This document shows, piece after piece, positions 2,831-53,784 of a DNA stretch of 64,000 bases. A program made the translations under genes and the position numbers. Source of the DNA: Malacoraja senta (Eukaryota). The stretch is taken from assembly GCA_038087875.1 (NCBI GenBank), contig CM075989.1, forward strand, positions 6,884,001 to 6,948,000. The letters are read 5' to 3'. Every line of letters starts with the position of its first letter. Within the stretch, counting starts at the first letter, position 1. The notes beneath the pieces are model-generated. The model did not search any database. It was not told the origin of the DNA and saw only the letters and a program-made list of their open reading frames with translations.

Positions 2831-2927
2831 TGGGGCTTTATGTATGGGTCAGATATATTGTCAGTGCAGAGGGGCTAGGAGCAATGCCAAGTGTGCATCC
2901 AGAGTCAAGGTCTGGAATAGTACTGGG

Positions 2928-3130
2928 TGTAGATCAGTGCATGTTCCTTTAACTTAGTGACCTCACCACTACTAACCACTCCCCATTGTCTCTCCTATAA
3001 TTGTAAGGTCCCCACCTCCAGCCCGCTCTCTAGCTCCAGTGATGACCACGGACAGCTATTGCATAGTGTGTGTTAGTGATATAATAAACCATCAGTAAAA
3101 GACTCTGTGTAGGAACCAAGTCATTTTACA
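2928..3130 (+). repeat. 5' LTR (203 bp)
   Basis: Direct repeat of 4263-4464; the only difference I can see is a 1-bp indel. Contains AATAAA. Confidence 0.95.
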
Positions 3131-3227
3131 TGGTGTCACAGTGGTAGACTCGCGTCTCCTGTTTATCGGTTTTTCTTTTTATTCTTTGCTTTCTCCCAGT
3201 TGTTCACGTCCCCCCCCCGTTTTCATT

Positions 3228-4058
3228 ATGTCCAATTCCTGTCGTCGACCCGACATATTGGTCTTTGACACGGACATTGTCCACCGCTGGACTGTGTTCC
3301 AGCGCGACTTTGAACATTACACAGCCATTGCTCATCCTAATGCCACCCCTGCTGTGCAGGCTCACCTGCTGCTCAACCTCGCTGGCCCGGAGGCCATGGA
3401 TCACTATGCTTCATTCGACTTCGCCCCCGGAGAAGACCGTCGGGACCCGGTATGTCTCATCGATAAATTCACTGCCGTCTGTGATATCCCTACTAATAAC
3501 ATTATTGAACGCTTTAAATTCTTCCAGAGGCGGCAGAATCCCGGCGAGCATATTGACGCTTTTATTGCCTCTTTGCGTCATATGGCTCGGCGCTGTCGCC
3601 TTGAAACAATCTCCACGGACGAATTGATCAGGGATGTCCTGGTCAATGGTCTCCTGAACGCTAAGCTGCGTGACGAGCTCCTTATGAAATCTGATTTGAC
3701 ACTAAGGGAGGCTATGCATTCCGCTCGTATGGCCTCTGCTGTTAGCTCCGTGTCTCAACCGGTGTCCCAGGACATTAACTTTACCGGTGCAGCTGGCCGC
3801 CGGCGGAACGCTGGTCTGCCACGACGAAACCCCGCCGCAATGCCCGCTAAGGTCACCCCACGCCGTTGCCCCAATTGCAATTTTTCTTTCCACCAATTCA
3901 ACGTTTGCCCCGCGCAGGGTAAGACTTGTAATTCCTGTGGCAAACTGAACCACTTTTCGGCGGCTTGTCGGTCCCGTGATAAGCCGGTCCCTGCTCCAAG
4001 GATGTTCTCCTCCGTCTCCGGTTCATTCCCCGCCCGGCTCTCCCACCTCTTTCCCTGA
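3228..4058 (+). CDS. gag: Retrotransposon Gag (276 aa from the first ATG) with two CCHC zinc knuckles
   Basis: Open frame with ERFKFFQRRQ..GE..DAFIASLR..A..C and LIRDVLVNG motifs, then CPNCNFSFHQFNVC and CNSCGKLNHFSAAC (both CX2CX4HX4C). Confidence 0.9.
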   Translation: MSNSCRRPDILVFDTDIVHRWTVFQRDFEHYTAIAHPNATPAVQAHLLLNLAGPEAMDHYASFDFAPGEDRRDPVCLIDKFTAVCDIPTNNIIERFKFFQRRQNPGEHIDAFIASLRHMARRCRLETISTDELIRDVLVNGLLNAKLRDELLMKSDLTLREAMHSARMASAVSSVSQPVSQDINFTGAAGRRRNAGLPRRNPAAMPAKVTPRRCPNCNFSFHQFNVCPAQGKTCNSCGKLNHFSAACRSRDKPVPAPRMFSSVSGSFPARLSHLFP

Positions 4059-4158: not shown

Positions 4159-4262
4159 CTGTGTTATGACACGATTAACTGTTCCCAGCGCGGTTTGTAA
4201 TCCTAGCGTATGAGCCATGGTCGCTCTGTGTATTGCCATGTTTTTGTTTCCAAGAGGAGGGA

Positions 4263-4464
4263 TGTAGATCAGTGCATGTTCCTTTACTTAGTGACCTCAC
4301 CACTACTAACCACTCCCCATTGTCTCTCCTATAATTGTAAGGTCCCCACCTCCAGCCCGCTCTCTAGCTCCAGTGATGACCACGGACAGCTATTGCATAG
4401 TGTGTGTTAGTGATATAATAAACCATCAGTAAAAGACTCTGTGTAGGAACCAAGTCATTTTACA
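4263..4464 (+). repeat. 3' LTR (202 bp)
   Basis: Direct repeat of 2928-3130, preceded by the PPT and followed by the TSD. Confidence 0.95.
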
Positions 4465-18867: not shown

Positions 18868-19070
18868 GTTGCTTTGAAAGGCTGCACTGCAAAATAAATG
18901 GCTGTTGTTGGTGGTGGTAACTGCTTTGAAAGGCTGCACTGCAAAACAATGGCTGTTGTTGGTGGTGGTAACTGCTTTGAAAGGCTGCACTGCAAAAAAA
19001 AAATGTCTGTTCTTGGTGGTGGTAACTGCTTTGAAAGGCTGCACAGCAAAAAAAATCTGTTGTTGGTGGA
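18868..19070. repeat. ~52-bp tandem repeat, ~4 copies
   Basis: Repeated GCTTTGAAAGGCTGCACTGCAAAA...TGTTGGTGGTGGTAA. Confidence 0.9.
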
Positions 19071-19452: not shown

Positions 19453-20400
19453 CACCCTGCTTGAAATGGTATGAAACTGCATTTGAATTTGGTGGCCTTG
19501 CACCCTGCTTGAAATGGCATGAAACAGCATTAGCATTTGGTGGCCTTGCACCCTGCTTGAATTAACATGAAACTGCACTTGAATTTGGTGGCCTTGCACC
19601 CTGCTTGAAGTGGCATGAAACTGCACGTGAATTTGGTGGCCTTGCACTCTGCTTGAAATGGCATGAAACTGCACTTGAACTTGGTGGCCTTGCACCCTGC
19701 TTGAAGTGGCATGAAACTGCAGTTGAATTTGGTGGGCCTTGCACCCTGCTTGAAATGGCATGAAAGTGCATTTGAATTTGGTGGCCTTGCACCCTGCTTG
19801 AAATGGTATGAAACTGCATTTGAATTTGGTGGCCTTGCACCCTGCTTGAAATGGCATGAAACAGCATTAGCATTTGGTGGCCTTGCACCCTGCTTGAATT
19901 AACATGAAACTGCACTTGAATTTGGTGGCCTTGCACCCTGCTTGAAGTGGCATGAAACTGCACGTGAATTTGGTGGCCTTGCACTCTGCTTGAAATGGCA
20001 TGAAACTGCACTTGAACTTGGTGGCCTTGCACCCTGCTTGAAGTGGCATGAAACTGCAGTTGAATTTGGTGGGCCTTGCACCCTGCTTGAAATGGCATGA
20101 AAGTGCATTTGAATTTGGTGGCCTTGCACCCTGCTTGAAATGGCAGGAAACTGCACTTGAGTTTGGTGGCCCTGCACCCTGCTTGAAGTGGTATGAAACT
20201 GCACTTGAATTCGGTGGCCTTGCAGCCTGCTTGAAGTGGTCGGAAACTGCACGAATTCAGTGGCCTTGCACCCTGCTTGAAGTGGTCGGAAACTGCACTT
20301 GAATTCGGTGGCCTTGCACCCTGCTTGAAGTGGTAGGAAACTGCACTTGAATTTGGTGGCCATGCACCCTGCTTGAAATGGTCGGAAACTGCATTTGAAT
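19453..20400. repeat. 48-bp minisatellite, ~20 copies, with a 337-bp higher-order duplication
   Basis: Unit CACCCTGCTTGAAATGGCATGAAACTGCACTTGAATTTGGTGGCCTTG. Identical ORFs at 19530 and 19867 are 337 bp apart. Confidence 0.95.
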
Positions 20401-20845
20401 TTCAAGCTCCTCCTTTATGTATACAAAGCCCTTAACGGGCTTGCCCCCACCTACATCCAAAATCTGCGAACCCACCATTCTACCTCCAGGTCCCTCAGGA
20501 CGGCCGACTTGGGGCTACTGACTATCCCGCGGCCCAGGCATAAGCTCAGGGGCGATCGCGCTTTTGCGGTTGCAGCACCTAGACTGTGGAACAGCATCCC
20601 TCTTCTCATCAGAACTGCCCCCTCCATCGACTCTTTTAAGTCTAGACTTTAAACTTATTTCTACTCACAAGCGTTTCTTGAGGCCCTCTGAGGGAGCGCT
20701 GTATGTATGTATTTATGTATGTATTGTTAGATCTATGTACCACTGTATGTAGCATGTTAGTACCTGCACTGATGTAAAGCACTTTGGTCATCGAGAGTTG
20801 TTTTTAAATGTGCTATAGAAATAAAATTGACTTGACTTGACTTGA
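20398..20845 (+). mobile_element. L2 LINE 3' fragment
   Basis: FKLLLYVYKALNGLAPTY...GDRAFAVAAPRLWNS; 3' TGTAAAGCACTTTG stem and (CTTGA)n tail. Confidence 0.9.
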
Positions 20846-40210: not shown

Positions 40211-40556
40211 GACGACAGATGGCGCAATGGGCTAAGTGTTCGGCTGGCAACCGGAAGGTAGCCGGTTCGAATCCCGCTTGGAGTGCATACTGTCGTTGTG
40301 TCCTTGGGCAAGACACTTCACCCACCTTTGCCTGCGTGTGAATGTGTGTGAATGTGTGTGAGTGATTGGTGGTGGTCGGAGGGGCCGTAGGCGCAGATTA
40401 GCAGCCACGCTTCCGTCAGTCTGCCCCAGGGCAGCTGTGGCTACAGAAGTAGCTCACCACCACCGAGTGTGACTGAGGAGTGAATGAATAATGCGATGTA
40501 AAGCGCCTTGAGTATTAGAAAGGCGCTATATAAATCCCATCCATTATTATTATTAT
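40211..40556 (+). mobile_element. tRNA-derived CORE-type SINE with an L2-like 3' end
   Basis: A-box ~40220, B-box GGTTCGAATCC 40264-40274, CORE-like GTGTCCTTGGGCAAGACACT, TGTAAAGCGCCTTG..AAAGGCGCTATATAAAT and (ATT)n. Confidence 0.8.
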
Positions 40557-52637: not shown

Positions 52638-53197
52638 TGACTGTTTCTTAAATGTTGTGATAGTCCCTGCTTCAACTACCTCCTCTGGCAGCTTGTTCCA
52701 TACACCCACAATCCTTTGTGTGAAAAAGTTACCCCGCAGATTCCTGTCAAATCTTTCCCCTTCACCTTAAACCTATGGCCTCTGGTCCTCGATTCACCTA
52801 CTCTGGGCGAGAGACTGTGCAACAGCCCTATCTATTCCTCTCATGATTTTATACACCTCTGTAAGATCATGTTGCACACCAGGATTAAGAGGTGCAAGGT
52901 TAGGCCATTCAATTCCTCAAATTCCTTCTGCCAGTCAATAGCAACTAATATTGCTGATTGACTCCGTTCCAGACTGCAGAAGGACGTGCCGAGGGACTCA
53001 CTGTGTTAGGTGCAGCCAACACCAAGATTGTGTGGCGGAAGCTCAGAGCCTAGGGTCCTTCCACGGCTGGACATTGAGGGGCAGAGTCCAGTGGGGACCC
53101 GTCAAACAAGGGCAGGGATATCACCCCAGGGGGCCACATGAGTGTCAAGGGTTTTTGTTTTGCTTAACAGTAGGTCCGAACACAACCCACTATGACA

Positions 53198-53321
53198 CCT
53201 TCTTCTTGCGTATGGCGTGCAGGACAACTTGTTCTATTTGATCTTATTTGATTGTGCACGCCAGGTTGATTGCATTCATTGAAACAGGGCGGACCACGTG
53301 AAGGTTGCTATCTCCCACCCC
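53198..53321 (-). mobile_element. 124-bp SINE-like retroposon headed by an HDV-like ribozyme fold
   Basis: TSD CCACTATGACA (53187-53197, 53324-53334; 13 bp with 1 mismatch), GGCGTGCA/TGCACGCC stem, (AGA)n tail. Confidence 0.85.
53268..53321 (-). ncRNA. Minimal HDV/CPEB3-like ribozyme fold, probably inactive in this copy
   Basis: P1 GGGGUGG/CCGCCCU, P2 GAUAGCA/UGCAAUC, P3 ACC/GGU, L3 UUCACGU, J4/2 UGAA in place of CGAA. Confidence 0.8.
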
Positions 53322-53784
53322 ATCCACTATGACAATAATGATTGTATGGATGCTGTGAATGTCACATGTTCTGTTTTGTATATACCTTTTATTCTGAATA
53401 AAGTTTATCTTTGGAAATAAAACAAAAAAGTCATCACTAGGAAGAAGGCAGATATTTAGATGTTTGCAGCTGCAATTTGGTTCCATTTTTTAAACTCTGT
53501 CTATACCTTGAAACATTTACCATCAAAGAGTTGAGTTTGCATTGATTTTACAAGCCATTTGTCATGCTGCAGTGACATCCTCCCAACAGTGGTGGCACTA
53601 ATGGCAAGGATGTCGCGTTCTAATGGATGAGTTTGAGTAAATTCAGGAATTTAAATTTGAAAATTATGGGGGTGGAGGAGAAGAAGAAGCTAAATTAAAA
53701 TTTTAAGAGAAGTAAATAAACTATGTGGGAAGTTAGTAATGCTCCTTCAGGTGCACTTTAAAACCCGGATCATTTCAATTTACA

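Follow-up and report, generated by a model that had tools for sequence, protein, structure and literature searches.

Predicted HDV-type ribozyme heads on a mini-retroposon and its Vingi-like parent LINE in Malacoraja senta, and a probable donor of the mammalian CPEB3 ribozyme

The window analysed in this work is a stretch of 64,000 nucleotides of the Malacoraja senta genome (contig CM075989.1, positions 6,884,001 to 6,948,000). On its minus strand lies an insert of 124 nucleotides (53321-53198), flanked by a target site duplication (TSD) of 13 nucleotides with one mismatch. The upstream TSD copy (53334-53322, 12/13 identical to the downstream copy at 53197-53185) directly adjoins the first nucleotide of the insert, G1. 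The first 54 nucleotides (53321-53268) form a putative HDV/CPEB3-type ribozyme head with no real P4 and a predicted cleavage site at G1 = 53321. P1 pairs 53321-53315 with 53292-53286 (7 bp, with the wobbles G1-U36 and U5-G32), J1/2 has 2 nucleotides, and P2 pairs 53312-53306 with 53274-53268 (7 bp, including an A-A mismatch at 53309 that reflects a copy-specific T-to-A change). P3 (3 bp) and the loop L3, UUCACGU (53302-53296), occupy 53305-53293. A P1.1 pair is possible between C22 (53300) and G37 (53285), and 5 nucleotides separate U38 from position 44 (53278), the catalytic position, which belongs to J4/2 (53278-53275). Viewed by origin, the insert begins with a segment common with the 5' end of its parent LINE (53321-53245, LINE positions 1-77, 92% identical to the LINE copy L117), continues with a joining segment of 22 nucleotides (53244-53223), and then shares with the LINE 3' end the last codons, the stop codon and the short 3' UTR (53222-53202); 15 nucleotides of this 3'-derived segment, the stop codon among them, are missing from the window copy. 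An (AAG)n tail covers 53207-53198, and 53221-53214 pairs with 53262-53255 in a stem of 8 bp. The minus-strand layout given in the original prediction, from P1, P2, P3 and L3 to the stem, the tail and the TSD next to G1, was verified in every one of its sequence statements.

The window contains only this one copy of the element, which we call family A. Its other features include a gag-like frame of 319 amino acids with a CCHC motif and no Pfam match (3099-4058, plus strand), flanked by direct repeats of 206 nucleotides (2925-3130 and 4260-4464, 99% identical), an arrangement resembling a short LTR element. ARAGORN found a tRNA-Ala(GGC) at 40212-40286 (plus strand), probably the head of a SINE, and tandem arrays lie at 19453-20402 (48 nucleotides, about 20 times) and 18870-19069 (51 nucleotides, about 4 times). 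Around the insert, 46 of the 149 unmasked frames were scanned and gave 0 Pfam matches; a CR1-like frame nearby has its best named protein matches in Callorhinchus and Chiloscyllium. At the element itself, ARAGORN found no tRNA and Rfam no small-RNA match.

As a ribozyme, the window copy is probably dead. Compared with the majority of 76 copies described below, which has T at position 13, G at 42 and C at 44, it carries substitutions at these three positions and the 15-nucleotide deletion in its 3' part. The majority thus has the catalytic C and the repaired P2 that had been predicted for the consensus, and the comparison agrees with the proposal that two CpG-type transitions altered this copy. 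A C-to-U change at the catalytic position kills HDV-like ribozymes (PMC10879173; PMC13635239), and by analogy with such C75U mutants the T at 53278 would make the window copy inactive; judged by the G1 pair and the catalytic C, it lacks the latter. A strict descriptor of the HDV nested double pseudoknot gave no match in this copy, and an Rfam scan of the window region returned no ribozyme among 10 matches, all at chance level. Its folding energy was unremarkable against shuffled sequences (z = -0.18); the minimum-energy structure includes P1 and most of P3.

A DNA search of the genome with the window element gave 2,177 candidates. An exact 22-mer from the ribozyme core occurred 2,769 times and an exact 21-mer from the tail 3,182 times, with 0 occurrences of either reversed control, so that the window element is not a product of chance but, as foreseen, one copy of a multicopy retroposon. 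The first 80 places with the tail pattern, all on contig 1, were then taken as a sample in whose selection the 5' end played no part. Since 24/80 of these tail-picked copies contain the exact core, the family has roughly 9,000 copies, a rough figure; the element is 135 nucleotides long. The expectation that copies begin at G1 held in this sample: 76/80 start within 5 nucleotides of G1, with position 1 as the start of 60 and position 2 as that of 11. Of the four remaining copies, one is interrupted by an insertion yet starts with the head, and three align from positions 36, 95 and 95 only.

The flanks upstream of the 76 copies have no sequence in common except a T at -1 (46/76), and a weak T/purine step 11-14 nucleotides upstream marks the nick site. 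After removal of 3 duplicated loci, 62/73 copies had a TSD of 8-16 nucleotides (median 12), which touches G1 in 46 of the 62 and is separated from it by 1-4 extra bases in 16. Many TSDs overlap the tail, their first bases being A, AG or G. The AAG tails, the variable TSDs and the dispersal of the copies are hallmarks of TPRT. Two subfamilies can be told apart: the older, nearer the LINE, comprises 20 copies with a non-CpG divergence of 5.1%, the younger 44 copies with 2.9%.

At two loci the last 39 nucleotides of the short element are fused to the end of a LINE ORF, with the stop codon inside the common tail. Among 39 such loci, L082 (1466-4266) is a full-length copy of 2.8 kb with its own TSD and the same head and tail, so that both ends of the short element are present on one LINE copy. 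The short element consists of LINE positions 1-77, thus keeping 23 LINE nucleotides past the 54-nucleotide ribozyme, 22 joining nucleotides, and the last 36-39 nucleotides with the tail; its positions 100-135 and the 3' end of L086 show 100% identity. The joining segment has no match in L082 or L110, the best match in the two long parent copies searched being 9 nucleotides. A further product of such a deletion, independent and longer, is L122. With both ends from one LINE, no ORF and the hallmarks of TPRT, family A is a bipartite non-autonomous LINE of the SIDE/NARTc type; having no tRNA-, 5S- or 7SL-derived head, it is not a strict SINE. Dependence on a LINE enzyme had been proposed at the outset, and both element ends indeed match one LINE of the same genome, the comparison of the 3' end with autonomous LINEs leading to a Vingi-like element of about 3 kb. 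Two parts of the original prediction have to be replaced: the partner, for which RTE had been suggested as possible, is a Vingi-like LINE with a single ORF, a C-terminal CCHC and no RNase H, and the supposed SINE with an independent head is an internally deleted LINE derivative (5' 77 nucleotides plus 3' 36-39 nucleotides).

The parent LINE is about 3 kb long, and its single ORF combines APE, RT and a C-terminal CCHC knuckle, of which Pfam finds only APE and RT. The copies examined are all broken and about 3% from their majority. No RNase H-like motif was seen in L082, L110, L204, L261 or L265; the motif is present in 3 outgroup loci. Vingi elements are described as having a single ORF with APE and RT, about 3 kb in length and without RNase H (PMC13708176), and by its sequence the parent LINE matches this definition. 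The best 120 relatives listed are mostly proteins of about 1,000 amino acids on contigs of about 3.2 kb, and the closest among those listed is intact, with 1,019 amino acids and 72% identity. A quick, midpoint-rooted RT tree, made without named Vingi, Ingi or RTE proteins, united the family A LINE (L110), a further LINE of this genome (family B, see below), the metagenomic element L261 and a multicopy Anolis protein not labelled Vingi in one RNase H-less clade (SH-aLRT 100), with family B beside L261 (support 95). Such indirect evidence favours Vingi rather than RTE as the parent clade. Solved structures cover only the RTs of L1, R2 and group II introns, with none from Vingi.

The long copies bear on the 5' end of the template as well. 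Among 23 long-element 5' pieces, inversion with respect to the 3' piece was seen in 16 and collinearity in 5, with no orientation call for 2; 20/23 begin within 19 nucleotides of G1. The 16 inverted pieces are fused to internal LINE sequence and lack a donor flank. If they are twin-priming products, they constitute independent evidence for a template RNA with its end near G1. The combination of an inverted 5' piece and a distant 3' piece was observed in 16/23 LINE copies chosen by their 5' end and in 9/39 chosen by their 3' end (including L076, L105, L107, L113, L116-L118, L120 and L123-L128); such copies resemble L1 twin priming and differ from it by their large deletions. The stem formed by 53262-53255 and 53221-53214 joins the 5'-derived to the 3'-derived segment and has 10 bp in the younger short subfamily. 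As its strands come from both LINE ends, pairing between the two ends of the parent RNA would be possible over 2.7 kb.

The ribozyme fold is well kept in family A. Position 44 is C in 70 of the 76 copies, T in 5 and a gap in 1; G1 is present in 64/76; each pair is retained in 65-76 of the 76 copies, and all 18 pairs together with the core residues are intact in 25/76, so that about a third of the sampled copies look competent from their sequence. Intact short and long copies match the strict descriptor, with 0/443 matches in control windows. From G37 to the catalytic C there are 7 nucleotides with room for at most one pair, and P4 is therefore absent, as in HDV-like ribozymes known to exist and to cleave without P4 (PMC10879173). 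In the LINE head J4/2 reads C-U-A-A and position 5 pairs as U5-A32; in the younger short form these are C-G-A-A and U5-G32, and the fold is kept in both. Inside family A, the change from U5-A32 to U5-G32 or the reverse is one-sided, and it is the only one of its kind. Between families, P1, P2 and P3 vary in sequence yet remain paired by compensatory changes: across 8 heads of 7 families, P1 has 2 unpaired cells, whereas P2 and P3 are paired throughout. The ribozyme part diverged less than the body (2.4% against 3.8%) before duplicated loci were removed; without these and one rearranged locus the values were 2.5% and 3.2% (P = 0.13), and we have set this difference aside as evidence because it is not significant without the duplicates.

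A search with the CPEB3/HDV models of Rfam had been proposed as a check. An intact family A copy (L053) scored 17.1 bits on RF00622, below the cut-off of 35, and 14.4 on RF02682, and neither the LINE copy L082 nor the window copy gave a match to RF00622; by score, family A is not a member of RF00622. The same model, searched against the genome with only 59 of about 102,000 candidates scored, detected at least 39 places above the cut-off among the 60 matches listed, with up to 64 bits, while 0/14 control genomes gave a match above it. These places fall into five further families, B to F, with scores of 64.2, 51.1, 51.4, 45.8 and 36.3 bits, respectively.

Family B is a young Vingi-like LINE of 3.14 kb with a CPEB3-type head and a GAA tail, whose copies (L200-L204, L209 and L130-L139, for example L204:733-3774, minus strand) are 96-98% alike; one copy has an open frame of 1,014 amino acids, and 22 head matches are common to families B and C. 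In L204, partial head copies lie in tandem upstream of the element. A protein cluster 88% identical to family B includes a member from the teleost Aldrovandia affinis, which hints at horizontal transfer of an element of this type. A search of about 6% of one raw RNA run with the family B 5' end found 0 reads, a sample too small to weigh. Families C (L248-L253), D (L220-L224) and E (L240-L247) have older heads, a dozen or fewer each, and those of family D come nearest to the CPEB3 ribozyme, P4 included. Two family E copies are elements of about 95 nucleotides with terminal GAAG repeats. Family F is a second P4-less mini-retroposon of about 140-170 nucleotides, with TSDs, a GAAG tail and 832 exact matches (L225-L239, for example L226:1500-1670); most of its aligned copies have a P1 of 6 bp and the J4/2 C-C-A-A.

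Similar heads were found in a metagenome set of 80 loci related to these LINE proteins. The strict descriptor matched 1 of the 22 metagenome loci that had an N-terminal match: L261 (3362-6530), an intact Vingi-like LINE with a TSD, a TCA tail and G1 as its first base, which scored 55.6 bits on RF00622. A relaxed descriptor, which missed 5/11 copies from the present genome given to it and matched 1/1,650 control windows, found 3/7 hand-picked metagenome loci, adding L271 (about 3290-3370) and L328 (3314-3385), two HDV heads with different helix sequences. In one archaeal and one bacterial genome bin, Vingi-like LINE fragments were observed on 4 short contigs without 5' ends (L340-L343), probably as eukaryotic contamination of the bins.

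Our main reading, to which we assign a probability of roughly 0.8, is that family A is a 135-nucleotide non-autonomous retroposon that arose by deletion from a Vingi-like LINE and is headed by a ribozyme that cuts out its own template, which the LINE then mobilises. The head is inherited from the parent LINE and would be the P4-less form of a 5' module that Vingi LINEs have in common. Source copies would be transcribed as passengers in host RNA, possibly assisted by a Pr77-like internal promoter. The head would then fold and cut just 5' of G1, releasing an uncapped RNA of unit length. The LINE endonuclease and RT would bind the 3' stem and tail, nick the DNA, prime on the AAG repeats and copy up to G1, and new copies inserted in transcribed DNA would in turn become sources. 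That the short form is commoner than its parent would follow if any copy in transcribed DNA can be a source.

Starts at G1 would be accounted for equally well if the first 77 nucleotides were chiefly an internal RNA polymerase II promoter initiating there, with the ribozyme as a back-up for read-through. Such a dual element exists in the sister clade, where the first 77 nucleotides of L1Tc/ingi (Pr77) are promoter and ribozyme at once (PMC4035085; PMC8256844), and the 23 LINE nucleotides that the short element retains past its ribozyme fit this view. We consider it unlikely as the chief function on two grounds. Templates with a cap often leave a single additional G at the 5' junction, and this was seen in 0/62 family A copies with a clear TSD. 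Moreover, the heads differ widely between families with their pairing retained, which argues for selection on RNA structure and not on a DNA motif. By analogy with L1Tc, promoter and ribozyme roles could coexist.

Another possibility, which we judge improbable, is that the family A head, lacking P4, has little or no cleavage activity and persists as a folded 5' module that protects against exonuclease or binds the LINE protein. The 5 nucleotides between U38 and the catalytic C, the reduction of P1.1 to a single C-G pair and the mostly 6-bp P1 of the equally P4-less family F could all weaken cleavage, and R2 template RNAs are protected by an HDV fold (PMC13708176). On the other side, CPEB3 ribozymes with an identical P1.1 are active (PMC8233481), P4-less ribozymes do cleave (PMC10879173), and conservation of the catalytic C, of the G1-U wobble and of the adenine in J4/2 extends over the parent LINE, the two short subfamilies and family F. 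Finally, a classical SINE with an independent head and a borrowed RTE enzyme, suggested by RTE elements that carry HDV-like ribozymes and yield bipartite derivatives (PMC5786205), is largely refuted and of negligible probability, as both ends come from one LINE of this genome, the head is LINE-derived with no tRNA found by ARAGORN, and the LINE, with its C-terminal CCHC, falls among RNase H-less elements that have heads of the named-Vingi type.

Self-cleavage of an inherited Vingi head thus remains our preferred reading, and the same head leads to the CPEB3 ribozyme. The supplement of Kojima 2018 (PMC5786205) gives the 5' ends of Vingi-2_Gav, Vingi-4_Crp, Vingi-2_SPur and Vingi-1_BF and the body of SINE2-1_AMi. 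The four named Vingi elements carry the same type of head, and families B, D and E as well as L261 have heads that match these 5' ends. We compared these sequences by eye with the opossum CPEB3 ribozyme, whose activity is given as 0.94 in the supplement of Bendixsen 2021 (PMC8233481). Vingi-2_Gav is identical to it at 53/54 positions outside the top of P4 (39/40 over positions 2-41 and 14/14 at the 3' end), the two otherwise differing only at the P4 top; L261 is identical at 36/37 over positions 1-37, and the majority of five family D copies at 59/63 outside L4. SINE2-1_AMi agrees at 59/66 positions and matches the whole P4 stem. This alligator tRNA-SINE has the CPEB3-like head within its body (61-127), with changes in P1, L3 and L4, as expected if cleavage behind the tRNA head had to be lost. 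The likeness to CPEB3 noted at the outset for the L3 loop thus holds and extends past it.

Only about six nucleotides are invariant in the HDV-like class (PMC8256844), and near identity in spite of this freedom argues that the Vingi heads and the CPEB3 ribozyme are homologous. Convergence was ruled out as the cause of the likeness, given so few invariant nucleotides and the differing helices of the more distant family A, L271 and L328. As to direction, mobile elements of crocodilians, cartilaginous fish and metagenomes carry the head at their position 1, and it occurs in sea urchin and lancelet Vingi elements too, and the CPEB3 copy sits at one mammalian intronic site; a head so widespread on mobile elements points from Vingi to CPEB3. 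Vingi LINEs, in our reading of these sequences, very probably have an HDV-type ribozyme at the 5' end, and the mammalian CPEB3 ribozyme would be such a 5' end, domesticated after a Vingi, or an element derived from one, had inserted in a therian ancestor; this confidence applies to homology and direction together. An old insertion would have placed the full-length module in intron 2 of CPEB3, where it became the present ribozyme. In line with this direction, the human genome contains a Vingi relic, X12_LINE (PMC5753468).

In our literature search, outside which lay the Repbase reports, patents, Ruminski 2011 and Kojima 2011, we found no publication joining Vingi and CPEB3, no ribozyme in Vingi and no P4-less ribozyme retroposon in a vertebrate. 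The link between Vingi and CPEB3 seems rather likely to be absent from print. The available portions of PMC8233481 and PMC10919898 do not address the origin of the CPEB3 ribozyme, and De la Pena 2020 proposed the domestication of ribozymes from mobile elements in general terms, with the donor unnamed in the text available (PMC7761336). The accessible part of PMC5786205 names R1, R2, R4, RTE and Ingi along with LOA as ribozyme-bearing clades; Vingi is missing there and its 5' end is not called a ribozyme, whereas the same work counts Vingi among four clades with bipartite ORF-less derivatives, such as those of Vingi-1_EE, and describes Vingi-containing SINEs.

Ribozyme-headed non-autonomous retroposons are already known in general (PMC6765202). 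The closest to family A are NARTc, RIME and SIDER of the trypanosomatid L1Tc/ingi group (PMC4035085), which are likewise dispersed and combine the first 77 nucleotides of an Ingi-related LINE, ribozyme included, with its 3' end. Family A differs in its vertebrate host, its Vingi-like parent without RNase H, its length of 135 nucleotides, its 54-nucleotide P4-less head and its (AAG)n tail. The R2 SIDEs of Drosophila (PMC3414825) also join a 5' ribozyme to a 3' end by internal deletion and move by TPRT in trans, but they are rare and specific to the rDNA site, whereas family A is dispersed in thousands of copies and derives from an APE-type LINE. With the CPEB3 ribozyme (RF00622; PMC8233481) family A has in common the G1-U38 geometry (here G1-U36, L3 and C22-G37) and J4/2; families B-F, L261 and Vingi-2_Gav are nearly identical to it in sequence. 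That ribozyme is a single conserved intronic locus with a P4 of 7 bp, and family A has other helix sequences and no P4. Minimal HDV-like or theta ribozymes also have about 54 nucleotides and no P4 (PMC10879173), but about 99% of them are reported from phages, beside tRNAs, and the head of family A lies on a vertebrate retroposon and would descend from a Vingi head.

If correct, these results point to a specific donor of the CPEB3 ribozyme, which is a catalytic RNA conserved in mammals and linked to memory, and add Vingi to the ribozyme-bearing LINE clades. They may also matter for Vingi-1_Acar, which is under development for RNA-only gene insertion, as a self-cleaving 5' UTR would affect the design of template and driver; in the available part of one review on this subject, ribozymes are mentioned for R2 only. 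P4-less ribozymes, so far reported almost exclusively from phages, would be placed in thousands of copies in a vertebrate genome, and in cartilaginous fish a P4-less module of 54 nucleotides would head two mini-retroposon families, A and F. One prediction is that selection acts against intact, sense-oriented copies in introns, for which the family provides a natural mutational series. For family A itself, the findings suggest a route by which an element of 135 nucleotides, with no head derived from a small RNA, may have been amplified.
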